From Candidatus Blackburnbacteria bacterium RIFCSPHIGHO2_12_FULL_44_25 (GTDB taxonomy: Bacteria; Patescibacteriota; Microgenomatia; UBA8517; UBA10165): a stretch of 47,612 bases of DNA. Positions within the stretch are counted from its first letter, which is position 1; each line of letters starts with the position of its first letter. The stretch is from assembly GCA_001816455.1 (NCBI GenBank), contig MHCB01000012.1:1-47612 (forward strand). Reading direction: 5' to 3'. Under the pieces are notes generated by a model that made no database searches, was not told the DNA's origin, and worked only from the letters and a program-made list of their open reading frames with translations. The position numbers were made by a program, and so were the translations under genes. Of this stretch, positions 2,589-47,216 are shown piece after piece.

Positions 2589-2650
2589 CACAGCTTTAGC
2601 TGTGAAGCTGAGAAGATGCCACGGCTTTAGCCGTGGAGCTTCATAGATTA
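2589..2650. repeat. Two-hairpin structured repeat module, copy B (between the convergent stops at 2575 and 2648)
   Basis: cacagc-TTTA-gctgtg / AAGCTgaGAAGAtg / ccacggc-TTTA-gccgtgg / AGCTTCATAGATT. No T/U tract follows on either strand. Confidence 0.65.
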
Positions 2651-4327
2651 AAGGGTGCAAAGAGAACTAGGAGAGATCTTGCATTTCATTTCTGGATTCG
2701 TCTCATATCCACGAAAGATTGGATTTCCGTTTAAGTCATTTACTTCCAAAACTTTAGTCAAGAAATGCTCCTTTGCTTGCTGTTCAGAAATCGCAAATTC
2801 ATCCCCGACCAAAATCTGCCTTTTATAAATATCTTCATCCCATCTAATGTTTCTTGTTTCGATATTCCCAAACTTATAATATGAGCTGAAACTTGGCTTA
2901 TTGTAGTAGTCTTCCTTAATCGTTTGGTCTACCTCTTGTTGAAACTCAGCCGGAGGATATGCCAGGAAAAAGGCTAGTTCTATGTAAACAGGTTTCGTTC
3001 TCGACTGGTCAATTAGGAATTTTTTATCCGGGTTTTCTTTTATAACCTCTGCTAATTGTTGGAAACCGTATCCCCAAACACGAGCCCTCTCGTGTGGCAA
3101 CAGAACAAAATAACCCCTCCAAAGAAGAACAATAGAATACACCAATAGAAATACAACCAGCGGAAAAGCGAACCTTAGCCTAATTTTTTGCAGCACCATG
3201 TCTAACCCGAGCGTTGTTACAAGAGAGATAGGCAACAATAAAGGAAGAGCCCTTTGAGTCGAAAATGGATCCTTGGTAAGTGCAACAGGAAAAGGTATAA
3301 GGAAAAGCAAAAGAAATATAAACCGACCCGCGTTTGTTTTGCGTAAAGTCCATAGTTTTAGGAGCCCCAAAAACCAGGGTCCTACCATCCAAGGATAAAA
3401 AGTAGCAAGATCAGGTATAGACCGTTGCGGATCAGGATCTGGCAAAAAGAAAAGAGACCTTGGAGAAAAATAAGCCACATACTGCGAGAAAAATTCCCTC
3501 AAAAAAGAAAGAGGTATTGCTATTATCTCAGGTAAAAAGCGAATTTTTTCTGCTTGACTTATTACCTGTTGACTGTAAAACAAAGCGGACTTAGAGAAAA
3601 ACACCGTCGTATCCAAAAGCGTGAAATTGGGGATTTGAATTATCCCAAAAGCAACAGCAGAAGCAAACAGAACTATCTTGTTTGATCGATCAAACAAGTT
3701 TTTTCTAAATAAAAACAAAAACGAAAACGCAAAAAAGACAGAAAGATAACGCTCTAGGTGCGCTCCATAGGTGGAAAGTGACAAGAAAATAAAACCAAGC
3801 AATAAATAGGTTTTTCGCGAGAGGGATAACCAACAAAACAATACACCGACAAAAAACAAGAAAAAGCCCAGGTAAATTTCATATCCAGTCCGAGCAAAAA
3901 AAACATTCCACGGCGTTATCGCAAAGAGAAAAGTTGTAGTAAGTAAAGTAATTCTGCTTCTAGTAATTCTTAAACTCTTTAAAAGCAAAAAGAACACAAT
4001 TATTCCGAAGATTCCACAGACGGAAGAAGCAAGCCGCACAGCCATTGCATTCAAACCAAACACCCGAACAAGAGGGATCGTAATATACGTGTAAACAGGC
4101 GGTGAGTAAGACCCAAAAAACCGTAAAGCAACCGGAAAAGATTTCCCATATTCATCCTTCCTTGTGAGATTTAACGAGTAGGCATTATAACCAGTAACAG
4201 TCTCATCCACATATACCCCGGGTGGTACTCTTGCTAAGTCATGTAGGTAAAAGAAAGTACCAAACACCACAATCAAACAAAGAGCTAAGATTTCAATAAT
4301 CACCCACCGAAACCTACGAGTATTCAT
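2648..4327 (-). CDS. GT-C fold membrane glycosyltransferase, ArnT/PMT_2 (GT39)-like; outlying seventh member of the tandem family
   Basis: 559 aa. The first loop is VYVDETVTGYNAYSLNLTRKDEYGKSFPV. It also has AITPWNVFFARTGYE, FLPDPDPQRSIP, ALTKDPFSTQRALPLL and the C-terminal KPVYIELAFFLAYPPAEFQQ. All of these align with the proteins at 19632-30835. Many TM helices. Confidence 0.8.
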   Translation of the reverse strand: MNTRRFRWVIIEILALCLIVVFGTFFYLHDLARVPPGVYVDETVTGYNAYSLNLTRKDEYGKSFPVALRFFGSYSPPVYTYITIPLVRVFGLNAMAVRLASSVCGIFGIIVFFLLLKSLRITRSRITLLTTTFLFAITPWNVFFARTGYEIYLGFFLFFVGVLFCWLSLSRKTYLLLGFIFLSLSTYGAHLERYLSVFFAFSFLFLFRKNLFDRSNKIVLFASAVAFGIIQIPNFTLLDTTVFFSKSALFYSQQVISQAEKIRFLPEIIAIPLSFLREFFSQYVAYFSPRSLFFLPDPDPQRSIPDLATFYPWMVGPWFLGLLKLWTLRKTNAGRFIFLLLFLIPFPVALTKDPFSTQRALPLLLPISLVTTLGLDMVLQKIRLRFAFPLVVFLLVYSIVLLWRGYFVLLPHERARVWGYGFQQLAEVIKENPDKKFLIDQSRTKPVYIELAFFLAYPPAEFQQEVDQTIKEDYYNKPSFSSYYKFGNIETRNIRWDEDIYKRQILVGDEFAISEQQAKEHFLTKVLEVNDLNGNPIFRGYETNPEMKCKISPSSLCTL

Positions 4328-5039
4328 ATGACATAACTTGAAGAAACACTAAAGACAAAAAAACCAACAGCAAAACTTTCAAACTCTGCCTTCCAGCAAA
4401 CCGCTTTACAAAAGCATTCATTCCGGTTGCGCAAACAACGACAATAAAAGGAAAAAGTCCAATCGGGCCATACTGATTCCGATGACCCACAAACGAGACC
4501 AAAAAGATAGGGAGAAGAACAAACAAACCTTTCTGCCAACAAAACCGTCTTTCTAATTTAAGAATTCCAAAGACAAAAAACGGGAGAAAGACATAAGGAA
4601 ACTTTTCGAACTCATCAAAACCCACCCGCTGTCGCGGATGGTTGGCAAAGAAATACAGACCAGGATCAACCACTTCGGAAAAGTTTTGCTGAATTCTGTT
4701 TACCCAAATGGAGAACTTACTCTCTTCAAACCAGTTTGCAGGATAGAACCAAATATAGTGACCAAAAACCTGGTAAAAAGTGGGTGGATAAATATGCAGT
4801 CTTTGCTGTTGAACGAACTTTTGACTATCACCAAGGGCACTTAGTGGTTGTTTGTCTGTGGTCTTATATTGGACAACCAAAAGGATTACCAAAAGAGACA
4901 AAAGTATCTTACCGTCTAACCACTTTTGTTTTTTGTAAAAAAGGAAAGAGACGACGACCACAAAAATCCCAATCAAAGCGTTCTCAAAAACCAACCTCCA
5001 TGTCCACGGACTAAGGAGTAGGGCTAAGAAAAAAGACAT
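4314..5039 (-). CDS. Membrane protein resembling only the central/C-terminal TM module of the GT39-like family (no catalytic first loop)
   Basis: 241 aa. NFSEVVDPGLYFFANHPRQRVGFDEFEKFPYVFLPFFVFGILKL parallels NYLEPYSAKFLFIEGDLNPRHSP...FEFFFLLLGV in the full-length paralogs. The stop overlaps the start of 2648-4327 by 14 nt. Confidence 0.5.
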   Translation of the reverse strand: MSFFLALLLSPWTWRLVFENALIGIFVVVVSFLFYKKQKWLDGKILLSLLVILLVVQYKTTDKQPLSALGDSQKFVQQQRLHIYPPTFYQVFGHYIWFYPANWFEESKFSIWVNRIQQNFSEVVDPGLYFFANHPRQRVGFDEFEKFPYVFLPFFVFGILKLERRFCWQKGLFVLLPIFLVSFVGHRNQYGPIGLFPFIVVVCATGMNAFVKRFAGRQSLKVLLLVFLSLVFLQVMSYEYS

Positions 5040-5073
5040 ACGTTATTCTAACAAAACCGCTACAATTGAAGTC

Positions 5074-6570
5074 GTGAACAAGCTTTTGGCAATTGTCTTC
5101 GTTGTCTCCCTTGTATTTATTCTTTACCATCCAGCCCTCAAAACCTTCTTTTCTCAAGACGACTTTTTCCACTTCAGAGTAAGCCAAACCGATGGAACTC
5201 TGGGAGGATTTCTTAGCCTCTTTGGATTTCATTCATTTGAAGAAAGGAAAATCGCCTTTTATCGCCCCATAACCCGGGAACTGCCATTCAACTTGTCTTA
5301 TGCCTTCTTTGGCCTTAACCCGGCTCCCCTCAGAATACTTTCTTTTCTTCTACTTTTTGCCAACACCTACATGGTTTATCTGTTAATTGCAAAACTATTC
5401 AAAAACAAAACTATTGGGTTTTTTACAAGCCTCTTCTTCGCAACAACCTCCAACACAGCCGCCCTCTATTATCTTGCCGGTGGAATCCAAACAATCGGCG
5501 CCACCTTTTTTATTCTTCTTACCTTACTCCTGTTCGATCGCTACCTGGAAACCGGGAATAAGAAGATAAAAGTTCTTTCTTTCTTTACTTTTTTATTAGC
5601 TCTCGGTTCCGAAGAGCAATCCGTAATTCTACCCGTTCTTCTTGCTGGTTTAATATTTATTCAATCTTCTTTCAAAGAGTCCATTAAGAAATCTTTACTG
5701 GAACTTTGGCCACACATATTAGTAGTATGTGTTTTTACCTGGGCAGATATTAATCTGATCGGTTTTTCAAAAGAGGAAACTCAGTATCATTTTGACTTTT
5801 CGATTAAGAAACTTGCCAACACTTTTTCGTGGTATCTGGTGTGGGCCTTTGGATTGCCCGAAATGTTAATAGATTTTGTCCTCCCAGGTTTAAAACTTAA
5901 TCCAAGCCTGATGCGGTATTGGCCGCATTTCTATAAACCCATATTCTTAAGCTTTTTTATATCTGCAGCTGTGTTAATAGCAGCAACCATCTATTCTGGG
6001 TCTAAAAACATCTTTAAAAGCAGAATTTTATGGCTTCTTATTGTCTGGTTTACCACAGGTCTAGTTCCCGTTCTATTCCTTCCTCAGCATAAATCTACAC
6101 ACTATCTGCAACCAGTACTTCCGGCCTTTTGGGGAGCAATAATCTTTCTTACTTTTTCTGCCTACGAAAACCTGAAAAGCAAAGCTCCCAAGCTTTCTGC
6201 TTTACTTGCGGGATTTTTTGCCGGAGGAATACTCTCTCTTTCTTTTTTCTCAAGCCTCGCGGGAAAGGAACTATACTGGGCAGCGTCTCGTGGAAGACTC
6301 GCAAAAAAGCTAATATCAGACATATCCTACGAGTTTCCTAAATTACCCCAAGGTGCCGTCTTGTATATCCAAAACGATCCGTCTTATCCTTTCGTTGCGA
6401 AAGACTGGGGAGGAACCTCCAAACAAGCGGCTTTCGTTTTAAATAATGTTGACGGTTTAAGGCTTTATTACAAAGACCCGTCCCTAAAAGTTTATTATCA
6501 AGATACGATTCCTCCCACAGAGGTTATTCCAGAATCCGCCTACACGGTAGTCGCAAAGATTGACTGGTGA
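5074..6570 (+). CDS. GT-C-like polytopic membrane protein, TMTC/PMT-related type (DD motif after TM1)
   Basis: 498 aa, GTG start. It reads TM1, then FFSQDDFFHF, then FYRPITRELPFNLSYAFFGLNPAPLRILSFLLLFAN. This has the same architecture as the N-terminus of 44847-47216. About 11 hydrophobic segments. Confidence 0.6.
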   Translation: MNKLLAIVFVVSLVFILYHPALKTFFSQDDFFHFRVSQTDGTLGGFLSLFGFHSFEERKIAFYRPITRELPFNLSYAFFGLNPAPLRILSFLLLFANTYMVYLLIAKLFKNKTIGFFTSLFFATTSNTAALYYLAGGIQTIGATFFILLTLLLFDRYLETGNKKIKVLSFFTFLLALGSEEQSVILPVLLAGLIFIQSSFKESIKKSLLELWPHILVVCVFTWADINLIGFSKEETQYHFDFSIKKLANTFSWYLVWAFGLPEMLIDFVLPGLKLNPSLMRYWPHFYKPIFLSFFISAAVLIAATIYSGSKNIFKSRILWLLIVWFTTGLVPVLFLPQHKSTHYLQPVLPAFWGAIIFLTFSAYENLKSKAPKLSALLAGFFAGGILSLSFFSSLAGKELYWAASRGRLAKKLISDISYEFPKLPQGAVLYIQNDPSYPFVAKDWGGTSKQAAFVLNNVDGLRLYYKDPSLKVYYQDTIPPTEVIPESAYTVVAKIDW

Positions 6571-6623
6571 TACAATCTTATCTACGGTAGTCGCAAAGAT
6601 TGACTGATGATACAATCTTATCT
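6544..6623. repeat. Perfect-but-one 40-bp tandem duplication (2 copies) spanning a gene junction
   Basis: 6544-6583 is acggtagtcgcaaagattgactGgtgatacaatcttatct. 6584-6623 is identical except G6567/A6607. Copy 1 contains the stop of the 5074 gene, and copy 2 contains the TTG start of the flippase. Confidence 0.9.
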
Positions 6624-8096
6624 GTGGCGCAAGCTAATTCCGAACTGACCCTCGAAACAATAAAACAAAGATCCGTACACGGCGTCATCGCTCTCACCGG
6701 AAGAACCTTTATCCTCCAAGCAATAAATTTTGTTTCCCTTGCTTTTTTTACAATTCTCTTTACCCAAGTCGAATATGGAATTTACGGAATAGCTCTAGCC
6801 GTTCGGGGTTTTTTAACCTACTTTTCAGACATTGGTCTTGCTGCGGCGTTAATTCAAAAACGCAACAAAGTAACAAAAAACGAGTTGGGGACAACCTTTA
6901 TCATCCAACAGTCACTGGTGATTCTTCTTGTTGCAATAGGTTTTGCGGCAACCCCCTTCCTTGCCCGCTGGCAACAACTAACTACCCCCGGAATTTACCT
7001 CCTTTGGTCATTTTATATTGGATTCCTATTGTCTTCCTTAAAGACCATCCCTTCAGTTCTACTCGAGAGAAAGTTAGAATTCACAAAATTAGTAATCCCT
7101 CAAATCTTCGAATCAATTGCTTTCAATCTCGTTGCGATAGGCCTTGCTTGGTCGGGCTTTGGAATAATAAGCCTTGCCTATGCGGTACTTGTGCAGAGTA
7201 TTGTAGGATTAGTCTCAATTTACATACTCAAACCCTGGAGACCAAAGCTTGTCTTTTCCCTCGATTCGATACGAGGCCTGTTTAAATTTGGAGTTCCATA
7301 TCAACTGAATACCTTTCTTGCCGTCCTCAAAGACGACGGCCTAGTTATTGTTTTAGGGGGAATTCTAGGCCCTGCCAACCTGGGACTTCTATTGTGGGCG
7401 AAGAAATGGGGAGAGGCCCCATTAAGGTTCTTTATGGACCAAGTAATAAAGGTCACCTTTCCTGCATTTTCTCGACTCCAAGACGATCATACCCAACTCA
7501 AGAGTGCTCTCTCCCGATCCATTTTTTTTATATGCCTTTTAGTTTTCCCTGCTATCGCGGGACTAATGCTACTGGCTCCTTTATTGACCGAAGTTGTACC
7601 AAAGTATGAAAAGTGGGAGCCAGCCCTGTTTGCACTAAACCTGTTTGGCCTGAGCGCTGGAATCGCCGCCATTACCACCCCCTTGACTAATATGCTCAAC
7701 GCTATCGGCAGAATCCGTACAACCTTCAAACTCATGATTATGTGGGTAATTTTGACCTGGGCGATAATGCCCTACTTTGCCAACCGAGGTGGAGTTAACG
7801 GAGCAGCGCTGGGAGCACTGTTGATAGGACTAAGCTCGGTAGTTGCAATCGTTATCGCATATAAGTATGTAAAATTTGACGTTTCCTATTCGATCGTGAA
7901 ACCGCTATTGGGAACCACAGCAATGGCGACCATTCTTTATTTCTTAAGAACAGTGGTCCCCGTCAGTTGGTTAGGCGTTTCCAGTTTAATAATAACAGGG
8001 GTTATCTTCTATTCTGTCGTAATAAGTCTATTAATTGGCCCCACCCTAGCCGTTGATGCAAGGAAAGTCTGGTATGCAATCGCTAAAAAACAATAA
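6600..8096 (+). CDS. MOP-superfamily (Wzx-like) polysaccharide/lipid-linked oligosaccharide flippase
   Basis: 498 aa, TTG start at 6600 (GTG at 6624 is the alternative). About 12-14 TM helices. YGIYGIALAVRGFLTYFSDIGLAAALIQKRN is typical of Polysacc_synt family N-termini. Confidence 0.8.
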   Translation: MTDDTILSVAQANSELTLETIKQRSVHGVIALTGRTFILQAINFVSLAFFTILFTQVEYGIYGIALAVRGFLTYFSDIGLAAALIQKRNKVTKNELGTTFIIQQSLVILLVAIGFAATPFLARWQQLTTPGIYLLWSFYIGFLLSSLKTIPSVLLERKLEFTKLVIPQIFESIAFNLVAIGLAWSGFGIISLAYAVLVQSIVGLVSIYILKPWRPKLVFSLDSIRGLFKFGVPYQLNTFLAVLKDDGLVIVLGGILGPANLGLLLWAKKWGEAPLRFFMDQVIKVTFPAFSRLQDDHTQLKSALSRSIFFICLLVFPAIAGLMLLAPLLTEVVPKYEKWEPALFALNLFGLSAGIAAITTPLTNMLNAIGRIRTTFKLMIMWVILTWAIMPYFANRGGVNGAALGALLIGLSSVVAIVIAYKYVKFDVSYSIVKPLLGTTAMATILYFLRTVVPVSWLGVSSLIITGVIFYSVVISLLIGPTLAVDARKVWYAIAKKQ

Positions 8097-9789
8097 ACCC
8101 GCTGCTCTTCTTATCATTATCGGAAGTCTCGTTTGGAGTCTTACTATGGTTAAAAGCGGGCTCTGCTGGGACGCGAAATGCGTCGGAGGCATAGGATTCT
8201 GGGGCCCCAACGGCCACGACGGCGTGTGGCACATAGCACTCATAAATCATCTGGCTAATGACTCTCTGGAGATGCCCGTCTTCTCAGGCTCAGACCTAAA
8301 AAACTACCATATAGGCTTTGATTTGTTATTAAGCCTCTTTGTACGGTTTTTCCATATTCCCGCCCAAACGCTATACTTCCAAATAATTCCACCCATCGTT
8401 GCTGTATTAATCGGCTTTTTAACCTACTTGTTTGTGGAGCGATGGACCAAATCAAAAAAAGGAGCATTTTGGGCCACCTTTTTTGTCTATTTTGGCGGAA
8501 GTTTTGGCCCAATAGTTTCCTTAATCCGGGATGGTCACATAGGAGGGGAGTCAACATTTTGGTCTCAGCAAGCAATCTCCACGCTAATCAACCCTCCTTT
8601 TGCGTTATCTCTCGTTGCTTTACTGGTAATACTACTTATCCTCCTTAAATACGAGGAAAAAAAAACTTGGAAAAAATTCGCGGTTTTAGTTCTCTTAATT
8701 GCAATTACGACCCAAATCAAGGTCTATGCTGGAATCCTAACGATTAGCGCCCTGCTGGCGGTTGGACTGTATGACCTCGTTCTTAAAAAAAACACTTCAT
8801 ACCTTGCTCTTGCCACAACATCTTTGGTTATCTCTTTACTGTTGTTTATCCCTCTAAACAAAAACTCCTCTTCTCTAGTTGTCTTTCAACCTTTTTGGTT
8901 TTTAGAAACAATGATGGCCCTGTCAGACCGTCTGGGTTGGCCACGCTACTACGAGGCAATGACAAACTATAAGGCGGGGGGAAACTTTGTGAAAGGTGTA
9001 CCAGCTTATATAGTTGCTTTTATTATTTTCTGGGCAGGAAACATGGGGACACGTATTGTTGCTGGAACCGAAAACTTTCGGTGGATTAAGAGTTGGAACA
9101 AGCTTTCTCCCATTAAGGTTTTTATGGTAGTCCTTACGACAGAAGCATTAACAGCGCCGATGTTATTCCTCCAAAAGGGAACACCTTGGAACACCATTCA
9201 GTTTTTTTACTACTATCTGTTTTTCGCAAGCATCATTGCCGGAATCGCCTTCGAGAATTTGATCAAAGATAAATCGCACCAAGTACGTATCATTCTTGTT
9301 TGCGCCCTCCTCGTCCTCACGCTTCCAACCACCTATGCCACTCTACAACACTATCTTCCCTCTCGCCCCCCGGCAAGACTTCCAAATGATGAGATAGAAG
9401 CCCTGAAGTTTTTATCCAAAAACGAAAGAGGAGTCGTCTTAACTTATCCCTTTGATTCCTACGCAGCCGAGCAAGCGGTAGTTAATCCACCAAGGCCTCT
9501 ATACCTGTATGAATCAACTGCCTATGTCGCTGCCTTTTCCGGAAAACCGACTTTTCTGGAAGATGAAATAAACCTAAACATTACCGATTACGAATGGCGA
9601 GCCCGTAGAAAAGAGGTTGAAGAATGGCTTAAAAACCTTGATCAAAAAGAAACATACGCCTTCTTGAGAAAAAACAACATTAAATACGTCTACTGGGTTA
9701 AAGGCCAACGCGCGAGTTTAGGAGAAACCCAACTCGGAATCTCACGCATCTTCGAGAACAAATCCGTAGATATTTATCAAGTAGACTAA
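8053..9789 (+). CDS. Large polytopic membrane protein, GT-C-like or glycan polymerase/ligase-like, unclassified
   Basis: 578-aa ORF; the likely start is ATG 8056 or 8074 (MQSLKNNKPAALLIIIG). The first loop is GFWGPNGHDGVWHIALINHL...NYHIGFDLL. There are more than 10 hydrophobic segments and a soluble C-terminal region of about 150 aa (YPFDSYAAEQAVVNPPRPLYLYESTAYVAAFSGKPTFLEDE). Confidence 0.5.
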   Translation: MMQGKSGMQSLKNNKPAALLIIIGSLVWSLTMVKSGLCWDAKCVGGIGFWGPNGHDGVWHIALINHLANDSLEMPVFSGSDLKNYHIGFDLLLSLFVRFFHIPAQTLYFQIIPPIVAVLIGFLTYLFVERWTKSKKGAFWATFFVYFGGSFGPIVSLIRDGHIGGESTFWSQQAISTLINPPFALSLVALLVILLILLKYEEKKTWKKFAVLVLLIAITTQIKVYAGILTISALLAVGLYDLVLKKNTSYLALATTSLVISLLLFIPLNKNSSSLVVFQPFWFLETMMALSDRLGWPRYYEAMTNYKAGGNFVKGVPAYIVAFIIFWAGNMGTRIVAGTENFRWIKSWNKLSPIKVFMVVLTTEALTAPMLFLQKGTPWNTIQFFYYYLFFASIIAGIAFENLIKDKSHQVRIILVCALLVLTLPTTYATLQHYLPSRPPARLPNDEIEALKFLSKNERGVVLTYPFDSYAAEQAVVNPPRPLYLYESTAYVAAFSGKPTFLEDEINLNITDYEWRARRKEVEEWLKNLDQKETYAFLRKNNIKYVYWVKGQRASLGETQLGISRIFENKSVDIYQVD

Positions 9790-9811: not shown

Positions 9812-10708
9812 ATGACAGTCACCGTGGTCATAAACACTCTAAATGAAGAAAAGAATCTGCCCCGTGCTCTGGCATCAATAAAATCCATTGCTGATGAAAT
9901 TGTCGTAGTAGACATGGAATCCACAGACAAAACTGTTGCAATCGCCAAAAAGGAAGGTGCTAAGGTCTATTCCCATAAACCAGTTGGTTACGTCGAACCT
10001 GCCCGCAATTTTGCAATAAGTAAAGCCAACTGCGATTGGATATTAATACTCGACGCAGACGAAGAAATAAAGCCGGAACTTGCCAAAAAGCTAAAAATTA
10101 TCGCAAAAAGTAAAAAACCTTCGGATTTCTATAGACTTCCTAGGAAAAACATCGTTTTCAAAAAATGGCTCAAACACTCTCGCTGGTGGCCAGATTACAA
10201 CATCCGTTTTTTCAAAAAAGGTGCAGTGAGTTGGAACGAGGTAATTCATTCCGTACCAGAGACAAAAGGAGAAGGACTCGATCTGCCAGCCCAGGAAAAA
10301 TTTGCGATTATCCACCACCACTATGAGACAGTTGCCCAATACTTAGAACGGCATAATAGATATAGCACAGTGCTTGCAACAGAGCTCCAAAAAAAAGGAT
10401 ACGAATTTTATTCACTAGATCTAATAAAAAAACCTCTGGGTGAATTTTTAAGCAGGTATTTTGCAGGGGAAGGCTATAAGGATGGAGTACATGGATTAGC
10501 ACTAAGCGCCCTTCAAGCATTCGTAGAGCTAACTGTTTATATAAAGGTTTGGGAAAAGGAAGGATTTCAAGAAAGCGAAATTACCCAGAAACAAATAAGC
10601 ACCCAATTCTCAAAAAGTGAATTCGAACTTGACTATTGGCTTCGGAATACAGGTATCAGAAAATACAATCTACCCGAAAAATTCCTCAGACGGCTTCTAC
10701 AAAAATAA
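9812..10708 (+). CDS. GT2 glycosyltransferase, WaaE/LgtF (beta-1,4-glucosyltransferase)-like
   Basis: 298 aa. VTVVINTLNEEKNLPRAL...EIVVVDMESTDKT...ILILDADEE, then WWPDYNIRFFKKG...VIHS...HHHY...YLERHNRYST. It is a paralog of 11613 and 30838. Confidence 0.85.
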   Translation: MTVTVVINTLNEEKNLPRALASIKSIADEIVVVDMESTDKTVAIAKKEGAKVYSHKPVGYVEPARNFAISKANCDWILILDADEEIKPELAKKLKIIAKSKKPSDFYRLPRKNIVFKKWLKHSRWWPDYNIRFFKKGAVSWNEVIHSVPETKGEGLDLPAQEKFAIIHHHYETVAQYLERHNRYSTVLATELQKKGYEFYSLDLIKKPLGEFLSRYFAGEGYKDGVHGLALSALQAFVELTVYIKVWEKEGFQESEITQKQISTQFSKSEFELDYWLRNTGIRKYNLPEKFLRRLLQK

Positions 10709-11616: not shown

Positions 11617-12374
11617 CACTAAGCGTAGTAATTATCACCAAAAATACCGAGAAAAAAATAGAGGACTGCTTGGAATCAATAAAGGACCTGGCAGACGAGA
11701 TAATCCTTTTGGATGGCGGGTCTACGGACAAAACAATTTCTTTAGGTAAAAAGTATAACGCAAAAATATACAAACAAAGGGGAAAGAACTTTGCTTCGTG
11801 GCGAACGCAAGCAAAGGGAGTAGCAAACGGGGAATGGTTATTCTATGTAGACTACGACGAAAGAGTATCGGAGGAACTTAGAGAAGAGATAAAAAGAGAA
11901 ACCCAAACCAGTAAATTCTCGGCTTTTGACATGCCTCGTAAGAACTTTGTTTTTGGAAAATATTTAAGATATGGCGGATGGTATCCTGACTACGTCCTTC
12001 GTCTCATCAAGAAAAAGAATCTTTTAAGATGGGACGGGGAGGTACACGAACAACCCAAAATAAACGGTAGTATTGGCCGACTTAAAAATGCACTAGTCCA
12101 CATTAAGGAGGAGAATATCGGCGATATGGTTACAAAAACCAACCGCTACGCAACCTTTGAAGCCAAACTTCTGTTTGATGCCGGCCACCCTCCCGTGACT
12201 TGGTGGAGGTTTATGCGGGTGATTCTACAAGAAATATGGCACAGGCTAGTTACAAAACTGGGAGTATTAGATGGACCCGAAGGGATTATTTACTGCGTTT
12301 ACCAGGGTTACAGTCGGTTTGTCACCTACGCCAAACTTTGGGAGATGCAAAAAACCCAGACACCTAAAAAATGA
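11613..12374 (+). CDS. GT2 glycosyltransferase, WaaE/LgtF-like
   Basis: 253 aa. LSVVIITKNTEKKIEDCL...EIILLDGGSTDKT...YVDYDERV...WYPDYVLRLIKKK...VHEQP...KTNRYATFEA. ATGA overlap with the upstream gene. Confidence 0.85.
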   Translation: MTLSVVIITKNTEKKIEDCLESIKDLADEIILLDGGSTDKTISLGKKYNAKIYKQRGKNFASWRTQAKGVANGEWLFYVDYDERVSEELREEIKRETQTSKFSAFDMPRKNFVFGKYLRYGGWYPDYVLRLIKKKNLLRWDGEVHEQPKINGSIGRLKNALVHIKEENIGDMVTKTNRYATFEAKLLFDAGHPPVTWWRFMRVILQEIWHRLVTKLGVLDGPEGIIYCVYQGYSRFVTYAKLWEMQKTQTPKK

Positions 12375-40692: not shown

Positions 40693-40726
40693 CGTGGAAT
40701 GGGCTATTGGTTAGCAAAAGAATCAT

Positions 40727-41506
40727 ATGATTAAGAAAATAATGAAAAAAGTCTGGATTAGTTTCTCCGAAAAACTCGGAACAAGCATTATCCATCCGCA
40801 ATTTTTACTTATTAAATTCCAAAAAGAAGGAATCGAAACAGCAAAGAAATATGCAAAAGGTAAGCTTCTTGATATTGGTTGCGGCCGGATGCCATACAGA
40901 AAAGCATTTCTACCTTTTGTGGATTCCTACACTGGTGTCGATCATCCCGAAATTTCGAGTCTCTATTCTTCAGATATAAAACCCGATGTACTTGCAGACG
41001 CAAAAGAACTTCCCTTTCCCAAAAATACTTTTGACATTGCGTTAATGTTTCAAGTTTTAGAACATGTAGATTCACCAGACAAAGTTATAAAGGAGGCGGG
41101 TAGAATTTTGAAGCCAAACGGAATACTTATTATTACCGTGCCATTTTTTTATCCTCTACATGACATGCCCCATGATTGGGGAAGGTATACAAGCACTGCA
41201 CTTAAGTCTTACGTCAAAGAGGCATCGTTAAATATTGTCAAAATAAAAGCAAATGGAAGCTTCTTTCAATTTTGGCTTCAGTCTTTGAACACGTTTTTGG
41301 TTAAACGAATAAACGACATGTTATCCGATAAATTAAGTTTCAAATCAGCATTTATTGTTCCTGTTGCAGTTATTTCGGTTCCAATAATCTTAGTAAATAA
41401 TTTACTAATAGTTTTGGTCGGCTTATTGTCAGGAGTATTCCCAGAATATCCCAACTATTTTCCCTTAGACTACCTTGTTGTTGCGAAGAAAACTTCTAAA
41501 GCATAA
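40727..41506 (+). CDS. Class I SAM-dependent methyltransferase with a C-terminal membrane anchor
   Basis: 259 aa. LLDIGCGRMPY; LPFPKNTFDIALMFQVLEHVDSPDKV...LKPNGILIITVP. The C-terminal hydrophobic stretch is FIVPVAVISVPIILVNNLLIVLVGLLSGVF. Confidence 0.85.
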   Translation: MIKKIMKKVWISFSEKLGTSIIHPQFLLIKFQKEGIETAKKYAKGKLLDIGCGRMPYRKAFLPFVDSYTGVDHPEISSLYSSDIKPDVLADAKELPFPKNTFDIALMFQVLEHVDSPDKVIKEAGRILKPNGILIITVPFFYPLHDMPHDWGRYTSTALKSYVKEASLNIVKIKANGSFFQFWLQSLNTFLVKRINDMLSDKLSFKSAFIVPVAVISVPIILVNNLLIVLVGLLSGVFPEYPNYFPLDYLVVAKKTSKA

Positions 41507-41510
41507 AAAC

Positions 41511-42734
41511 ATGAGCAAAACGACAAAAGTCTTAGTATTAACAAGCTCCTTCCCAAGGCATAAAAACGACTGGTGGCAACGCACAATCTTATGCATTTAT
41601 AGCAATATGGATTTGAAAAAATATTCCGTTACTGTTGTTGCTCCGACTGGGCCAGACTCATTAATTTCAGAGAAAATTGATGGAATAAATGTTAGAAGGT
41701 TCAATTATTTCTATCCAAGATCCCTACAAGTTCTTACGTCAGGAGAGGGCATACTTTATAGCAGCAAGAAAAATAAAATGTTGGGTAGGATCCAGATGTT
41801 TACTTTTATTCTTGCTGAATTCTTTACAGCTTTAAGGTTGTTGACGCAGGAAAAGTTCGACATCATACATGCAAATTGGATTATTCCTCAAGGATTTATA
41901 GCAATTATTTTAGGATTTATTTTCCAAAAGAGAGTAGTAATAACAGTACATGGCACAGATGTTTTTGCTCTGAAGAAATTAAACTTTATTAAAGCCTTCA
42001 TTCTCAAGCATTGCGATCTGTGTACTGCAAACAGTTCGGCTACTAGAGACGCCGTAAAAGAAATATATCCAAAAGCAAAAGTAGAAATAGCATACATGGG
42101 AGTTGATATAAAATTATTCAATCCACTTAAACGTAACAAATTGTGGATGGACCGATTTGGGAGTAACCCAAAAATAATTTTAGGCGTAGGAAGATTGATT
42201 AAATGGAAAGGCTTTGAATATCTCATAAAAGCATATGCCCTAGTTTTAAAGTCGATTCCAAATACAAAACTAGTTTTAATTGGCAAAGGTCCAGAAGAAG
42301 AAGCCTTAAGAAAGTTGGCAAAGAAACTAGATCTTGAAGAAAACGAAGATGTATTTCTTATGGGAACATTTGGTCCAGATAAATTGCCTATGATTTACGC
42401 ATCAAGTAATTTAGTCGTTTCACCATCAATAACAATTGCCAAGACGGGAGAAAAGGAAGGCCAAGGGAATGTTGTACTAGAAGCACGTGCTTCAGGAATT
42501 CCTGTGATAGCAAGTAGGTCAGGTGGTCTTATCGATACGGTTGACGGAGAAAAAAATGGGCTTTTATTTGAGGAAAGAGACTACAAAGAGCTTTCCAAAA
42601 AAATTATTTCGGTTCTTTCAAATGATACGTTAAGAAAAAATCTCTCCAAAAACGGATTGACATATGTAAGAGAGAACTTTTCTTGGGAAAATACAAGTTC
42701 AAGATTTTGCAAGCTGTATGATGAAATTCTCTAA
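41511..42734 (+). CDS. GT4 (GT-B fold) glycosyltransferase
   Basis: The track ORF starts at 41475; ATG 41511 gives MSKTTKVLVLTSSFPRHKNDWW. GVGRLIKWKGFEYLIKA...EKEGQGNVVLEARASGIPVIASRSGGLIDTVDGEKNGLLF. Confidence 0.85.
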   Translation: MSKTTKVLVLTSSFPRHKNDWWQRTILCIYSNMDLKKYSVTVVAPTGPDSLISEKIDGINVRRFNYFYPRSLQVLTSGEGILYSSKKNKMLGRIQMFTFILAEFFTALRLLTQEKFDIIHANWIIPQGFIAIILGFIFQKRVVITVHGTDVFALKKLNFIKAFILKHCDLCTANSSATRDAVKEIYPKAKVEIAYMGVDIKLFNPLKRNKLWMDRFGSNPKIILGVGRLIKWKGFEYLIKAYALVLKSIPNTKLVLIGKGPEEEALRKLAKKLDLEENEDVFLMGTFGPDKLPMIYASSNLVVSPSITIAKTGEKEGQGNVVLEARASGIPVIASRSGGLIDTVDGEKNGLLFEERDYKELSKKIISVLSNDTLRKNLSKNGLTYVRENFSWENTSSRFCKLYDEIL

Positions 42735-44850
42735 AAACAGCAAAGGACTTAGCATTCTTATCGTTCCGATTATATATTTAGTCATTGCTGTCTGTACTTT
42801 AAAAGACTATGGTATTAATTGGGACACCCCAAAACACCTTACTCGCGGACAGTCTTATCTTCATTTTATCTTAACAGGCAAACACGACTTTTTAGACGTG
42901 CCACCATACCCTCAAATGAAAGGCGCCCCGGATTATGTTGATAACAATGTCGACCCCCCAACAAGAGGGCAGCCCGCAAAAGAAAATTCCATAGAGGCAG
43001 GAATTCGCAGAAGTTACTTTCAGTCTGACTTTTACACTTTTGATTATTTTATGACCAAACATGAACATACACATCCCGAAGTAAACGGTCTGCTGGCAGC
43101 ATTTACCAACTTTGTTTTTTACCAAAAACTGGGACTGGTAGGGGACATCGAAGCTTACCACCTGTTTATCATATTTTTAACCTTTGCAATTTCCGTAGCC
43201 ATTGCCGTGTGGACCCATAAAAACTTCGGTGTCTTTGCCTCTGTGATAGCCACAAGTTCCATGGTAATGTACCCACTTGTATTTGCAGAATCCCACTTCA
43301 ACGTCAAAGACCCAGTTCTTATGTCGTTTTTTGGTCTTGCGATTCTGACCTTCTGGTATGGTTTTTCAAAAAACAAATCTTCACACATCCTAGTCTCAGC
43401 TGTTCTTGCTGGATTCTCCCTGGGAACCAAATTTAACACCTTTTTCTTGCCGGTAATACTCGCCCCCTGGGCTTTATCTGTCCTGTGGCAAAGATATAAA
43501 AACGCAAAGGCCAAGAAATTTAACTTAACCACTCTTCTCGGAGGGCGCTCTATGTTTATTAGCATGCTGTTCTACCCCATCATTATATTTGGCATTCTTT
43601 ATGTGTTTTCTCCATATTTATGGTCGGATCCTGTAAACCGCTTTCTGGAAATAGTCGGCTTCTACAGGGAAATTGGAAGAAGCACGCCTGGCGAGCAATC
43701 CCAGTTTATAGTAGGCGGTTGGAATACTTACCCATTAGTTTGGATTGCATACACAACACCAATACCAATACTCTTATTGTCCTTTGTTGGATTACCGTAC
43801 TCCGTTTTTTTGTTTGTTAGGAAAAGAAGTGAAACCGCTCTACTTGTGTTGTTGTGGTTTCTGGTGCCGATCTTTCGCGCAATCTGGCCCGGTATGAATA
43901 TATACGGTGGAGTTCGACAAATTATGGAGTTTGTCCCGGCCATGGCAATCCTTGCCGGAATAGGTGCTTTGCTTCTCGTTAGATTGTCAAAAGTTTTTAT
44001 CCCTATTATTGTTTTTTCGCTGATTTTTGTGGGCTACGAACTGTTTGTAATCCATCCCAATCAAAACGTTTACTTCAATCAATTGGTAGGTGGTTTACCT
44101 GGGGCTTACGATAAAAAAATTCCATCCTGGGGTAACTCATACGGCAATATATATCTCCAGGGAATAGAATGGTTAAATAAAAACGCTGAACCAAACGCCA
44201 AGGTTGCTTTGGGATGGAACTATATAAGCGCTATTCCGAGATTAAAATTAAGGCAAGACATATATCTTGATAACGCCTATTGGAGCGGCCCTCGCCATGA
44301 AGGCGAGTATTTAATAGAAACGTATGACAGCAACCCATTACAAGAACGCTATAAATACGCATATTATGAAACATTTCTAGAGCCTGTTTATCAAGTAAAG
44401 GTTGATGGGGTTCCTTTACTCAAGGTTTGGAAAAACTCATTTGAATACTCAAAAGCGGGTTTCGGTAATGAAACCATAATAAAACCCGAGTCAGTACTAA
44501 TAGATGATGTACGAGTCCCTCCTGGTGCCTTTCAAAAGAGGCTAAAAATACAATTCGCAAAAGAGATTTATCTGGCAAAGTTAATTATTGACCATTCTCC
44601 AGACAACTGCGAAGCCCAAAATGGAGTAGGGTTTGTTGAGATTTCCCCAGACGGCAAAAACTGGACAAGAGACCAAAGTCCGCTTATCGATACAGAGGCA
44701 CCCTACTTAACCCCAGACATGGACGAAAACACTTTCGTTTTTATGTTTCCAGCAAAATTAGCCAGCGGAATTCTTCTTAACTCTGAAAGAGAGACTCCGT
44801 GTATTTTGAAAGACTACAAAGTCACAGTTTGGGGATCAAAAGGACAATGA
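42718..44850 (+). CDS. GT-C membrane glycosyltransferase (GT39/PMT_2-like) with a C-terminal beta-rich (discoidin-like?) domain; 710-aa paralog B
   Basis: 710 aa. KDYGINWDTPKHLTRGQSYL...HPEVNGLLAAFTNFVFY...NVKDPVLMSFF...HPNQNVYFNQLVGGLPGA...GNSYGNIYLQGIEWLNKNAEP...VKVDGVPLLKVWKN. The tail is FVEISPDGKNWTR...FVFMFPAKLASGILLN...KVTVWG. Confidence 0.7.
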   Translation: MMKFSKNSKGLSILIVPIIYLVIAVCTLKDYGINWDTPKHLTRGQSYLHFILTGKHDFLDVPPYPQMKGAPDYVDNNVDPPTRGQPAKENSIEAGIRRSYFQSDFYTFDYFMTKHEHTHPEVNGLLAAFTNFVFYQKLGLVGDIEAYHLFIIFLTFAISVAIAVWTHKNFGVFASVIATSSMVMYPLVFAESHFNVKDPVLMSFFGLAILTFWYGFSKNKSSHILVSAVLAGFSLGTKFNTFFLPVILAPWALSVLWQRYKNAKAKKFNLTTLLGGRSMFISMLFYPIIIFGILYVFSPYLWSDPVNRFLEIVGFYREIGRSTPGEQSQFIVGGWNTYPLVWIAYTTPIPILLLSFVGLPYSVFLFVRKRSETALLVLLWFLVPIFRAIWPGMNIYGGVRQIMEFVPAMAILAGIGALLLVRLSKVFIPIIVFSLIFVGYELFVIHPNQNVYFNQLVGGLPGAYDKKIPSWGNSYGNIYLQGIEWLNKNAEPNAKVALGWNYISAIPRLKLRQDIYLDNAYWSGPRHEGEYLIETYDSNPLQERYKYAYYETFLEPVYQVKVDGVPLLKVWKNSFEYSKAGFGNETIIKPESVLIDDVRVPPGAFQKRLKIQFAKEIYLAKLIIDHSPDNCEAQNGVGFVEISPDGKNWTRDQSPLIDTEAPYLTPDMDENTFVFMFPAKLASGILLNSERETPCILKDYKVTVWGSKGQ

Positions 44851-47216
44851 AAAATATCCTTAAAAAATATCAATTGTTTTTGATGGGCGCACTAATATTT
44901 CTAGTATGTTTTCTTGCGTATGGAAAAATTCTTGGAATGTATTTTTACTTAGAAGATTATCTGATTCTCCATTCCATCCAACATCCGAATTCCCCAAGTG
45001 CAGGGTACGGGTCAGGCATTGTTGGAAGACCATATGGTTATGCTGTAACACCTTTTATTCCTTTTTATTATCTTTTTAAACTCAACCCTTTTGGCTATTA
45101 TCTTGTCGAAATAATCTTGTATTTTCTGGCCGCTATCGCAGTTTACTATCTTGTATTAACTTTAACAAAGAATAAGAACGCCTCACTTGGTTCATCGCTC
45201 ATTTTCGCTTCAGGGTATGTTGGCTCAGAGTCACTATATCGGCTCGCAGTGGGTTGGCAAAATATTTTTGCTGCTATTTTCATTTCCCTATCGGCGGCCT
45301 TTTACTATAGATATATAAAAAATCCAAGCTTAAAAAGTTACATTCTGGCTTTTTTTATCTACCTTTTTACTTCCGAGTTTTCTTTCTATAGAGCCCATGG
45401 AATCGTTCTTATTGTTTTAAGTCTAGAGATATTATTTAACTTTAAACCCATAAAATCCTTAATTAGGATGATCCCATTTGCCCTAAGTTATTGGTATTTT
45501 TACGTTTATTCAATCAGAGACTTTATGAGTCCAGGCTCTACATCTGCGACATTACTTCATAAGATATTTGCAGAGAGACATTACAACTATCTTCTTGTTC
45601 CATTAAAAACTCTTGAAAACCTGTTTGTTCCCGATAAAATAAATCTACCTCTGTTTATTTTCCTGGCAGCTTTTCTAGTGGCATTGGCTTGGAAAAGAAA
45701 CAAAACTCTTATTTACTGTTTAATATTTACCGCTGCAAACTTCCTAGTATATTTTTACTATTCTCCGGGTAGTCCTCAAGAAACAGCCCAGCGGTACCTA
45801 CTGGTTTCATATGTGGGAGCTGCATCATTCTGGGGTATTTTTTTAGACAAAGTTTTTAGTAATAAACTTAAATACTTCCTATCATGCTCAGTAATCCTTG
45901 CGTTGAATTTAGGATTTTCACATAAAGAGCAAATTAATATTTTGCAGAATCGTAGTAAGCCATCTGCAAGATTTTGGCAAGATATGCGATCGCAGGTGGC
46001 AAGCTTACCAGAACATTCCGCTATATATATCGATTCAAAAAATGATGGTGTTTCAAAACCTGCACGAGACGCAGCCGTGGGTGCCGGTTCCATGGGCCCC
46101 ACAACTTCATTTGCTGCATATTACGGTATAGATTGGACAGACATATACCTTGCGGAAACTTTTTCTGAACTTCTTGAATTTATAAAAGACGGACAGGTTT
46201 TACCAAAAAATGTTTACACATTTTTCTATTCCAAAAATGAAGGATTAGTGAATACAACCGATCTAACTAAAGAAGCACTAGCCGGAACAAAATCCGCAAG
46301 CTCTTTTAAGTCCCTAAGTGATATTAGTCTCCCTTACAGTTCTCCTCTCCTCCTTGATTTCTCAAGCGATGTAAGACTTATATCCTCAAGCCTTGAATAC
46401 TCAAAGGAAAAAGTTGACCTTCCCCGTTATTTGCAATTCCTCAACTCAAAGGTCCGCTATTATAAAAACGTTTCGGCTTCTTCTACGACACAAGTCCGAT
46501 ATTCTGAAATAAAAAACATAATCGACGAAAATGCAGAAACTAGTTGGAGAGCAGATGATTTAGATTGGGCTAACTCCCACAAGGAAGAGGTGATCTTGGA
46601 CTTGGGAGAAACAAAAACTGTTGGAGGGATCCTAATTATCCCTGCTAGTATTGCTCGAACACCTTCAAAATATACATACGAATGCTCACAAGATCGTGTT
46701 ACTTGGGATAGTCTGGGTAGCTACGATAGGAAAGTTGAAAAAGTTGACGAGTTTCTTGATAAGCTTAAAGTTTCAACTTGCCATTTTATAAAACTTACAA
46801 TCTCTGCGACAGAAAGAAACGGCCCACCTCAAATATCTGAAATTGTGATTATCGAAGATGGCTTTGCTGATCTAAATGTAGATCACGCCGATAAGATTGA
46901 AGCAGATCCATTCAGGTTCGTGAGTTCGCAAGAGGACATTAACGTGTTGCACAAGTATCTAAACGAGAGTGGAGCAAGTGGGGAAATTTGTATAAACACA
47001 GATAAACAGGCTAACAAACGTACATGTACTAAGCACAATTTTAAACTGGGAATTAACAACGATTCAGTGTTTATTGATCAAGGGGGCAAATTATTGCAAA
47101 ATGTAGAAATTAAGCTTCCATCACAACTGCAAATAGAGACTAAAAACCCAAAAATTAGATATTTAACCTTTAAGGAACTTGATAAGCTAGACTACATTAC
47201 AAAGTACGAGGATTAA
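44847..47216 (+). CDS. TMTC/PMT-like GT-C membrane protein fused to a C-terminal F5/8 type C (discoidin, CBM32-like) domain
   Basis: The track ORF starts at 44799. ATG 44847 forms an ATGA junction: MKNILKKYQLFLMGALIFLVCF. The first loop is YFYLEDYLILHS...GRPYGYAVTPFIPFYYLFKLNPFGYYLVEIILYF. The discoidin pattern at about 46500-46860 is NAETSWRADD...VILDLGETKTVGGILIIPA...YTYECSQDRVTWDSLG...CHFIKLTISATERNGPPQISEIVII. Confidence 0.7.
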   Translation: MKNILKKYQLFLMGALIFLVCFLAYGKILGMYFYLEDYLILHSIQHPNSPSAGYGSGIVGRPYGYAVTPFIPFYYLFKLNPFGYYLVEIILYFLAAIAVYYLVLTLTKNKNASLGSSLIFASGYVGSESLYRLAVGWQNIFAAIFISLSAAFYYRYIKNPSLKSYILAFFIYLFTSEFSFYRAHGIVLIVLSLEILFNFKPIKSLIRMIPFALSYWYFYVYSIRDFMSPGSTSATLLHKIFAERHYNYLLVPLKTLENLFVPDKINLPLFIFLAAFLVALAWKRNKTLIYCLIFTAANFLVYFYYSPGSPQETAQRYLLVSYVGAASFWGIFLDKVFSNKLKYFLSCSVILALNLGFSHKEQINILQNRSKPSARFWQDMRSQVASLPEHSAIYIDSKNDGVSKPARDAAVGAGSMGPTTSFAAYYGIDWTDIYLAETFSELLEFIKDGQVLPKNVYTFFYSKNEGLVNTTDLTKEALAGTKSASSFKSLSDISLPYSSPLLLDFSSDVRLISSSLEYSKEKVDLPRYLQFLNSKVRYYKNVSASSTTQVRYSEIKNIIDENAETSWRADDLDWANSHKEEVILDLGETKTVGGILIIPASIARTPSKYTYECSQDRVTWDSLGSYDRKVEKVDEFLDKLKVSTCHFIKLTISATERNGPPQISEIVIIEDGFADLNVDHADKIEADPFRFVSSQEDINVLHKYLNESGASGEICINTDKQANKRTCTKHNFKLGINNDSVFIDQGGKLLQNVEIKLPSQLQIETKNPKIRYLTFKELDKLDYITKYED

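Follow-up and report, generated by a model that had tools for sequence, protein, structure and literature searches.

The contig MHCB01000012.1 of Candidatus Blackburnbacteria bacterium RIFCSPHIGHO2_12_FULL_44_25 (NCBI assembly GCA_001816455.1), whose 47,612 nucleotides form the window analysed here, carries between positions 2648 and 47216 a block in which genes for 16 large polytopic glycosyltransferases (GTs) of the GT-C fold are interleaved with genes for soluble GTs, flippases and methyltransferases. This block is probably the larger part of a vertically inherited supercluster for envelope-glycan assembly in the Microgenomates, OP11-type bacteria of the Candidate Phyla Radiation (CPR). The same genes recur one by one in dozens of related species, which makes it probable that the block produces a conserved surface glycan not yet described.

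The conservation of the block was traced by a scan with a 5-sequence alignment of its core paralogues, taking one genome per species; among 558 relatives the best 80 loci were analysed. With genes named by their start coordinates, the core order is 19632, a PIG-U-like gene, (22645), 24204, 25871, 27562 and 29216 in its first half, all of them GT-C genes, and GT2, GT4, PIG-V-like, MOP, GT2-35097, GT4 and UPF0104 in its second half. This order is collinear in 69 of the best 80 loci, which belong to other species, and an orthologue of 19632 is present in 44 of the 80. In the 38 full-length loci from other species, each covering 21.6 kb, the median count of GT-C genes is 7, a density equal to that of the window, and 29 of these loci possess all four central paralogues. 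The island is not peculiar to one genome but is a conserved, lineage-wide cluster. Further, the median identity between orthologues of different species is 41-48%, against 33-36% for the best paralogue within the window. Since orthologues are thus closer than in-window paralogues, the duplications are ancient, older than the species splits, and each copy was kept; such individual retention of old paralogues is as expected if each has its own job.

Composition and extent of the cluster

The window contains 37 open reading frames (ORFs), and those listed in a first-pass annotation, made from the DNA letters alone, lie where it had placed them, except that the YfhO gene more likely starts at 13383 or 13416 than at 13380. 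Its gene counts were also exact: taking the Pfam gathering cut-offs as the threshold for direct family assignment, the GT-C genes are interleaved with 7 GT2 and 4 GT4 enzymes, 2 S-adenosylmethionine (SAM) methyltransferases, 2 MOP flippases and 2 LPG_synthase_TM proteins (the MprF-flippase-like pair of the annotation); a DUF5667 protein stands among them as well. All families that it had predicted were recovered (PMT_2/PMT, YfhO, Mannosyl_trans2, GT87-type, Glycos_transf_2, Glycos_transf_1, Polysacc_synt, LPG_synthase_TM and F5_F8_type_C), and together the 16 GT-C genes occupy 27,831 bp, 58% of the window, in line with its estimate of roughly 28 kb and more than half. The genes are listed below with coordinates, strand, description and evidence (aa, amino acids; TM, transmembrane; AF2, AlphaFold2).

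2648..4327 (-): GT-C, PMT_2-type paralogue, 559 aa; without Pfam match, full-length paralogy to 27562
4314..5039 (-): 6-TM membrane protein, 241 aa, overlapping the start of 2648; without Pfam or NCBIfam match
5074..6570 (+): GT-C, divergent PMT_2 type, 498 aa, DD motif after TM1; orthologues with PF13231, hhalign
6600..8096 (+): MOP (Wzx-type) flippase no. 1; Polysacc_synt_3, E 2.6e-52
8053..9789 (+): enzyme of GT-C fold, 578 aa, STT3/DPY19/AftA-like, overlapping the end of the flippase gene; AF2 and Foldseek
9812..10708 (+): GT2 (GT-A); Glycos_transf_2, E 1e-20
10708..11616 (+): GT2; Glycos_transf_2, start as called on sister contigs
11613..12374 (+): GT2; Glycos_transf_2, E 1e-13
12371..13399 (+): GT4 (GT-B); Glycos_transf_1, E 4e-21
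13383..15788 (+; ORF from 13299): GT-C, YfhO family; PF09586, 96.7 bits vs 28.5
15788..16453 (+): SAM methyltransferase; Methyltransf_11, E 8e-24
16450..17973 (+): GT-C, PMT_2; PF13231, 36.1 bits vs 26.1
17976..18848 (+): GT2; Glycos_transf_2, E 5e-18
18811..19659 (+): GT2; Glycos_transf_2, E 8e-25
19632..21377 (+): GT-C, PMT_2, opening the conserved core array; PF13231, 44.8 bits
21383..22648 (+): GT-C clan, PIG-U/GT87-like; PIG-U, 30.5 bits vs 24.5, GT87 below cut-off
22645..24171 (+): GT-C, PMT_2; PF13231, 39.5 bits
24204..25874 (+): GT-C, PMT_2 core paralogue; PF13231, 44.8 bits
25871..27565 (+): GT-C, PMT_2/PMT core paralogue; PF13231, 45.6 bits
27562..29223 (+): GT-C, PMT/PMT_2 core paralogue, ArnT-like fold; PF02366, 40.9 bits, AF2
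29216..30835 (+): GT-C, PMT_2 core paralogue; PF13231, 34.5 bits
30838..31704 (+): GT2; Glycos_transf_2, E 4e-20, N-terminal similarity to GmaR and SunS
31697..32716 (+): GT4; Glycos_transf_1, E 1e-33
32694..33854 (+): GT-C, PIG-V/Mannosyl_trans2 type; PF04188, 41.1 bits vs 22.4
33851..35110 (+): MOP flippase no. 2; Polysacc_synt_3 and Polysacc_synt, start taken from the sister-contig calls
35097..35891 (+): GT2, candidate polyprenyl-phosphate sugar synthase; relatives of Dol-P-Man (dolichyl-phosphate mannose) synthase, ArnC and GtrB
35901..37028 (+): GT4; Glycos_transf_1, E 3e-37
37018..37932 (+): stand-alone MprF-flippase-domain protein (UPF0104); LPG_synthase_TM, 86.7 bits
37929..38501 (+): DUF5667 protein with N-terminal TM or signal segment; PF18915
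38519..40651 (-): GT-C, PMT_2, 710-aa type with long loop 1 and 265-aa C-terminal domain; PF13231, 32 bits
40727..41506 (+): SAM methyltransferase; Methyltransf_11, E 9e-18
41475..42734 (+): GT4; Glycos_transf_1, E 1.5e-37
42718..44850 (+): GT-C, 710-aa type; paralogy to 38519, PMT_2 below cut-off
44799..47216 (+): GT-C of the 5074 subfamily with a fused sugar-binding domain of F5/8 type C (discoidin); hhalign, PF00754
47213..47605 (-): second gene for an MprF-flippase domain, truncated at the window end; LPG_synthase_TM, 290 aa on longer contigs

From 5074 to 38501 there are 27 consecutive plus-strand genes in 33.4 kb, with a largest gap of at most 32 nt and 18 overlapping gene pairs, many of the 4-nt ATGA type; this stretch is an operon-like unit. 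Scans for sigma-70 promoters and intrinsic terminators gave no signal over shuffled controls, and tRNA and Rfam searches found neither a tRNA nor an Rfam family. The GT2 at 10708..11616 also matches a rhamnosyltransferase model below its cut-off (TIGR01556, E 9e-25, 87 bits vs a cut-off of 200). The small protein 4314-5039(-), for which Pfam and NCBIfam scans gave no family, weakly resembles the TM9-12 region of the PMT_2 paralogues (hhalign, 52%), and a weak homologue of it adjoins the 2648 orthologue in locus L016. The DUF5667 gene occupies the same slot after the UPF0104 gene in many related contigs and seems to be an integral member of the cluster.

That the array represents a chimeric assembly, or a row of decaying duplicated pseudogenes, can be dismissed for practical purposes. 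The locus DNA is at least 99.9% identical across the 12 sister loci fetched, which lie on about 10 independently assembled contigs from different samples, and this rules out an assembly artefact; further, all 16 GT-C ORFs are full length with conserved motifs and have orthologues that were kept across species. The same proteins are encoded by Rifle-aquifer contigs, which reach 189.6 kb, and by the NCBI assembly GCA_001816425.1. GT4-35901 looks disrupted on one sister contig (L004:19353-19543), but the cause is a scaffold run of Ns with mis-joined sequence and no real variant.

On the longer contigs glycan genes run past both ends of the window, which raises the number of GT-C genes to at least 20 over about 62 kb. 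On the right side the second UPF0104 gene is completed, and there are a third GT-C of the 690-aa kind, two genes for methyltransferases, three for GT2 enzymes and then a UDP-GlcNAc 2-epimerase-type gene (Epimerase_2); on the left side a 5-6-kb insert separates the block from two genes of PMT_2 type, one YfhO-like gene and a further GT2. The left module (a 5074-like gene, MOP, an 8053-like gene, three GT2, GT4, YfhO, a methyltransferase and further genes) is syntenic in a Blackburnbacteria genome and another assembly. Many metagenome contigs share synteny with the right module, usually in the form of one 690-710-aa GT-C followed by an ArnC-like gene. In the window, the region 38519-47216 has the lowest G+C (0.36-0.40) and holds extra copies of the 710-aa GT-C together with the discoidin-fused GT-C. 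Since relatives usually have a single 690-710-aa GT-C, often with PglF/PglE-like sugar-nucleotide genes ahead of it instead, the stretch from 38.5 to 47.2 kb is a lineage-specific expansion; the cluster seems to vary here while the remainder is fixed.

The 80 best loci are labelled as Microgenomates-type or generic CPR bacteria (Woesebacteria, Daviesbacteria, Shapirobacteria, Amesbacteria, Gottesmanbacteria, 'Patescibacteria group'), and the relatives being all Microgenomates bears out an earlier guess of a CPR-type host, a bacterium of Rifle groundwater. Complete genomes of relatives measure 0.6-0.9 Mb, and the host genome is probably under 1 Mb. Many records are titled 'uncultured Gammaproteobacteria' (L009, L011, L013 and about 35 others), one 'Clostridia' (L049) and one 'Parcubacteria'; as the cluster in these loci is syntenic with the others, the titles are probably wrong.

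Two further observations concern the surroundings. The insert between the GT-C blocks (window 708-2575; L091:12579-15983) is a DNA-repair/modification segment encoding an HhH-GPD glycosylase, a PDDEXK nuclease, an N6/N4 DNA methylase, a NUDIX protein and a uracil-DNA glycosylase (UDG), with the NUDIX and UDG genes lying left of the block within the window; a Blackburnbacteria genome (L094) has an N6_N4-methylase/PDDEXK pair in the corresponding position. A radical-SAM protein split by an intein with a LAGLIDADG domain (L059:16850-19780) is found near the cluster in 13 related loci.

Glycosyltransferase identity of the polytopic proteins

All 16 polytopic proteins are confirmed as GT-C-fold glycosyltransferases, as the first-pass annotation had proposed: 11 by Pfam cut-offs, 4 by paralogy, orthologue annotation or profile-profile comparison, and 1 (8053) by its AlphaFold model. 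PMT_2/PMT models (PF13231 or PF02366) score above the gathering threshold for 16450, 19632, 22645, 24204, 25871, 27562, 29216 and 38519(-). Four proteins that do not reach these cut-offs directly are linked through homology: 1) 2648(-) is 28.5% identical to 27562 over its full length (E 1.6e-56). 2) 42718 is 34% identical to 38519, likewise over its full length (E 1e-134). 3) Orthologues of 5074 (50-59% identity) match PF13231 and are named 'glycosyltransferase family 39 protein', and the 5074 family profile aligns with that of the PMT_2 paralogues at 98% hhalign probability (E 2e-13, 298 columns). 4) The N-terminal 534 aa of 44799 align over 361 columns with the 5074 family (hhalign probability 96.9%), placing its 'YLEDY' on the invariant 'SQDDF' of that family. 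For 21383-22648, PIG-U is above and GT87 under the cut-off, and these two related families are both candidates. NCBIfam gave nothing for the five proteins without Pfam hits, PDB-chain sequence searches with 5074 (single sequence and family profile) were empty, and a profile of eight PMT_2 paralogues found ArnT among the PDB chains only weakly (E 0.055).

Structure prediction was applied to two representatives. The AF2 model of 27562 (pLDDT 92.7) has ArnT (5F15) as its best PDB match in Foldseek, with TM-scores of 0.54/0.55 at probability 1.00, followed by oligosaccharyltransferases (OSTs), Pmt4, Emb proteins and ALG9/12. Like the model of 8053, it shows a helical bundle followed by a soluble C-terminal alpha/beta domain; this domain measures about 140-160 residues in most PMT_2-type proteins, as in ArnT, and about 265 in the 710-residue type. 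A hydropathy script finds 7-11 TM segments in each of the 16 proteins. Nine of them (2648, 5074, 19632, 22645, 24204, 25871, 27562, 29216 and 44799) have a DE, DD or ED pair 6-15 residues after TM1, the DE of 2648(-) standing 15 aa after it, and the other seven have single Asp residues in this loop. D34 is invariant and E35 nearly so across the PMT_2 paralogues, as is D29-D30 in the 5074 family. The N-termini ahead of TM1 are short and rich in K/R, which fits an N-in topology with loop 1 outside, though loop-charge parity from crude TM calls is inconsistent; homology to ArnT would likewise imply an acidic loop on the outside.

The 8053-9789 family comprises 1344 homologues, all named 'hypothetical', and a search at E<=1e-3 gives 1,565 representative clusters. 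Neither the single sequence nor the family profile gave a Pfam, NCBIfam or PDB-chain sequence match, and hhalign links it to the PMT_2 paralogues only weakly (68%). As sequence comparison was indecisive, the fold was settled through structure prediction: in the AF2 model on 45 homologues (pLDDT 85.5, predicted TM-score 0.89), the top 23 Foldseek matches in the PDB are all GT-C proteins, headed by yeast and human STT3 (E 1.4e-9 to 2e-8, TM-score 0.51-0.55) and continuing with DPY19, AglB, AftA, PglB and AftD, of which AftA and DPY19 score about equal to STT3 (TM-score 0.50-0.55, probability 1.00). H55-D56 is invariant in the family. Judged by this model, the 8053 type is a sizeable GT-C family without a Pfam model. 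It is not filed as an OST because the WWDYG motif (W[WY]D[YWF][GA] or WW[DE]) occurs in 0 of 45 members and Pfam STT3 (PF02516) has no match in the family.

Many members of this family (e.g. P0361, P0379) reach 1,000-1,160 aa by an additional secreted domain at the N-terminus, which measures about 450 aa, matches nothing in Pfam and bears the motifs VNPVRGxDFW, YPKSVGAW and DQYSTD. The domain does not occur in the window; in six related loci a separate 620-680-aa ORF downstream of the core array carries it. In P0399 (1,639 aa) a MOP flippase, the ~450-aa domain and an 8053 module form one chain, a hint at most since this is a single case and possibly a frameshift artefact. Locus L093 has two tandem 8053-family genes (2002-5324, 8247-11698) with two PTPS_related (PF10131) membrane proteins upstream, so that its left module shows further GT-C-like diversity.

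PMT/GT39 enzymes glycosylate secreted proteins in Actinobacteria, Caldicellulosiruptor and eukaryotes. The PMT/PMT_2 matches and the STT3 likeness of 8053 therefore bring up the possibility that the PMT_2-type enzymes glycosylate, for instance mannosylate, Ser/Thr of secreted proteins such as S-layer proteins, pilins or adhesins, with 8053 acting en bloc in the manner of an OST. A further point in its favour is that the N-terminal part of GT2-30838 resembles the protein/peptide glycosyltransferases GmaR and SunS, and a precedent exists in a GT39 enzyme required for protein glycosylation in C. bescii (PMC6151902). We nevertheless consider this unlikely: the closest solved structure for a core paralogue is ArnT, a lipid A modifier, and not PMT; the MIR domain is absent; 8053 lacks the STT3 features named above; and the F5_F8_type_C domain of 44799 (PF00754, aa 558-681), a discoidin-type sugar-binding domain, suggests a glycan acceptor.

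Proposed route of glycan assembly

In multi-component transmembrane glycosylation a GT-A enzyme makes an undecaprenyl-phosphate (C55-P)-linked sugar, a flippase turns it over, and a GT-C of YfhO or PMT_2 type transfers the sugar outside (PMC8035078). The component set of the island matches this scheme, and together with predicted UPF0104 flippases and the link of MprF-like proteins to glycolipids it leads to a sequence of steps, in which we infer donor type, orientation, serial action and acceptor from family membership, fold, gene order and conservation. 1) On the cytoplasmic face, the soluble GT2 and GT4 enzymes would make one or two precursors linked to lipid. 2) Export of these precursors would fall to the two MOP flippases. 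3) DPM1/ArnC/GtrB-like GT2 enzymes (35097-35891 and an ArnC homologue in the flank) would load polyprenyl phosphate with single sugars. 4) UPF0104 proteins or another flippase may turn these over. 5) The GT-C enzymes, with the Asp/Glu loop outward, would add sugars singly to the exported glycan, each conserved paralogue making a different linkage. 6) The methyltransferases may cap some sugars by O-methylation. 7) For transfer or ligation of the flipped unit the 8053 enzyme, whose gene is translationally coupled to that of flippase no. 1, is the foremost candidate, and the final acceptor might be a lipoglycan, a wall polymer or a surface protein. The first-pass annotation had spoken of a largely extracytoplasmic line; the 11 soluble GTs and two MOP flippases imply a substantial cytoplasmic phase too.

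Its suggestion that the line is fed by polyprenyl-phosphate sugars gains indirect support from two GT2 genes. The best solved relatives of 35097-35891, for the catalytic domain only, are Dol-P-Man synthase (5MLZ, 9e-11), ArnC and GtrB, and NCBIfam gives partial matches to PgfS, ArnC and PpgS. About 7 kb past the window, a GT2 of 312 aa with two C-terminal TM helices (L088:19699-20637) is a full-length homologue of ArnC (E 1e-48) and matches GtrB at E 2e-32. As to the flippases, stand-alone UPF0104 proteins are predicted to serve as such beside AglD-like GT2 and PMT/STT3-like enzymes in archaea (PMC5898192), and the MprF-like HexF is linked to glycolipid synthesis in C. difficile.

Neither a priming phosphoglycosyltransferase nor Wzy, Wzz, a ligase or an LCP (LytR-CpsA-Psr) gene was found in the ~69 kb examined, that is, the 37 window ORFs and 10 kb on either side on longer contigs; ABC (ATP-binding cassette) exporter and nucleoside-diphosphate (NDP)-sugar genes are missing among the 37 window ORFs. 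The reported absence of a priming enzyme, Wzy/Wzz and an ABC exporter thus stands, but that of NDP-sugar genes is partly an effect of the window edge, as the Epimerase_2 gene lies just past the right end. In related loci PglF/PglE-like sugar-nucleotide genes occur in 23 of 77, often adjoining the 710-aa GT-C, and a PglC-type (Bac_transf) primer turned up in 1 of 40 scanned clusters of unmatched ORFs (40 of the 118 such clusters from ~157 related loci). Two Wzx-type MOP flippases and many GT2/GT4 genes would be at home in a Wzx/Wzy-dependent O-antigen or exopolysaccharide locus of unusual look. With the genes just named missing in and next to the block, and sixteen GT-C genes that have no counterpart in such loci, we regard this reading as very improbable.

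The missing primer could also mean that none is needed, as in an assembly of the mycobacterial type of phosphatidylinositol mannosides, lipomannan (LM) and lipoarabinomannan (LAM), in which GT4 enzymes act on an inner-face lipid, a flippase exports it, and GT-C enzymes (here the GT87-like, PIG-V-like and PMT_2-like ones) elongate and branch the product outside without an undecaprenyl-diphosphate (Und-PP) primer. Four GT4 genes are at hand, the GT87/PIG-U-like and PIG-V-like genes have eukaryotic namesakes in the glycosylphosphatidylinositol-anchor pathway, and MprF-like flippases act on lipids and glycolipids. Yet MOP flippases of the Wzx type normally carry Und-PP-linked units, and the Bac_transf of one relative with the PglF-like dehydratases of 23 loci hint at Und-PP-linked amino-sugar primers, so that such a lipoglycan seems a doubtful product.

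Three-component systems in Firmicutes, and TMTC1-4 and TMEM260 in animals, act as parallel single-sugar modifiers. On this model the cluster would be a collection of independent modifiers, in which every GT-C supplies a single side-chain sugar and each serves its own polymer, site or class of proteins. Neighbouring GT2/GT-C pairs, such as the ArnC-like GT2 beside the 690-aa GT-C, speak for this, as do known bacterial PMT_2/YfhO enzymes that add single sugars to lipoteichoic acid, wall teichoic acid and wall polysaccharides (PMC8035078). A joint pathway fits better with 4-7 paralogues kept together, in fixed order and translationally coupled, in dozens of species, and recognisable donor synthases are far fewer than GT-Cs; we give parallel decoration a minority share of belief, though a serious one.

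Several points weigh against stepwise assembly of one envelope glycan by the route proposed above. There is the missing priming transferase; no protein matched the GtrA flippase family, two Wzx-type MOP and two UPF0104 proteins being present instead; PIG-U-like proteins are not invariably catalytic; the topology was judged by hydropathy script and homology only; and serial action on one glycan would look the same, in evidence of this kind, as parallel action on several acceptors.

Significance and comparison with known systems

Ultra-small and for the most part uncultivated, CPR bacteria are believed to live attached to other cells; to our knowledge almost nothing has been established of their envelope chemistry. 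With relatives' genomes of 0.6-0.9 Mb, a cluster of 45-62 kb takes up roughly 5-10% of such a genome, and the ~62 kb with at least 20 GT-Cs roughly 7-10%. Its order being kept across many candidate phyla, the product is likely to be central to the biology of the lineage. The cluster provides a gene set for glycan, lectin, cryo-electron tomography and proteomic studies of Microgenomates surfaces, the ArnT-like paralogues constitute a large natural series on the diversification of GT-C specificity, and the 8053 type offers a sizeable GT-C family for study that lies outside all Pfam models. Public records already name single genes 'glycosyltransferase family 39 protein' or 'hypothetical protein', and our full-text literature search found no paper describing GT-C arrays in CPR; Meheust et al. 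(2019) noted only membrane-protein families of unknown function as enriched in Microgenomates.

Among characterized systems, the three-component ones of Gram-positive bacteria (CsbB/GtcA/YfhO, GtlA/GtlB, GacI/GacK/GacL, CsdAB) and ArnC/ArnT of Gram-negatives resemble the island and its flank, which together hold all three component types. However, each of these systems pairs a single GT-C with one donor synthase, and one to three such systems occur per genome, whereas 16-20 GT-Cs stand here in one cluster, with UPF0104 and MOP proteins in place of a GtrA-type flippase and with far fewer donor synthases than GT-Cs. The small archaeal neighbourhoods of an AglD-like GT2, UPF0104 and PMT/STT3-like enzymes (Makarova et al. 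2015, PMC5898192) recall the row of GT2 35097, GT4 35901 and UPF0104 37018, but comprise three genes against an array of 45-60 kb. The Campylobacter Pgl locus for N-glycosylation, like the island, keeps cytoplasmic GT2/GT4 enzymes, a flippase and a GT-C transferase together, and Pgl-like genes (PglF/PglE-like sugar genes and the one PglC-like primer) occur in the island's relatives; unlike the island, it has a single GT-C, PglB, with WWDYG, and no branch of polyprenyl-monophosphate sugars.

Closer in the number of GT-C steps is mycobacterial arabinogalactan, LM and LAM synthesis (PimE, MptA-C, AftA-D, EmbA-C), in which, after cytoplasmic GT-A/GT-B steps, many GT-Cs act serially outside on a lipid-linked or lipid-anchored glycan with decaprenyl-phosphate sugars as donors, and Emb, AftA and AftD are among the fold matches of the island models. 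Those genes, of the families GT53/GT85/GT87/GT89, lie scattered in a genome of 4.4 Mb, whereas the island is clustered and mostly of PMT_2 type. The lipid-linked-oligosaccharide pathway of the endoplasmic reticulum (ER) has the same component classes and logic: GT-B enzymes inside (ALG1/2/11), a MOP-like flippase candidate (Rft1), GT2 dolichyl-phosphate-sugar synthases (DPM1/ALG5), six serial GT-Cs (ALG3/9/12/6/8/10) and the transferase STT3, with ALG9/12 and STT3 again among the structural matches. We see a slim chance that the island is the Microgenomates counterpart of this ER-lumenal pathway, with at least six serial GT-C paralogues followed by en bloc transfer to surface proteins or the wall by the previously unrecognised STT3-like 8053 family. 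If this were true, the envelope of this CPR lineage would have the glycan as one of its defining components, and attachment to a host might be mediated by it. The likeness seen is one of logic: the CPR GT-Cs are ArnT/PMT_2-like and not ALG-like, the 8053 family is without the WWDYG of OSTs, and an ALG7/WecA-type primer is not in the cluster. Across all these comparisons the parts of the island are of known kinds, and it is their arrangement that is new.

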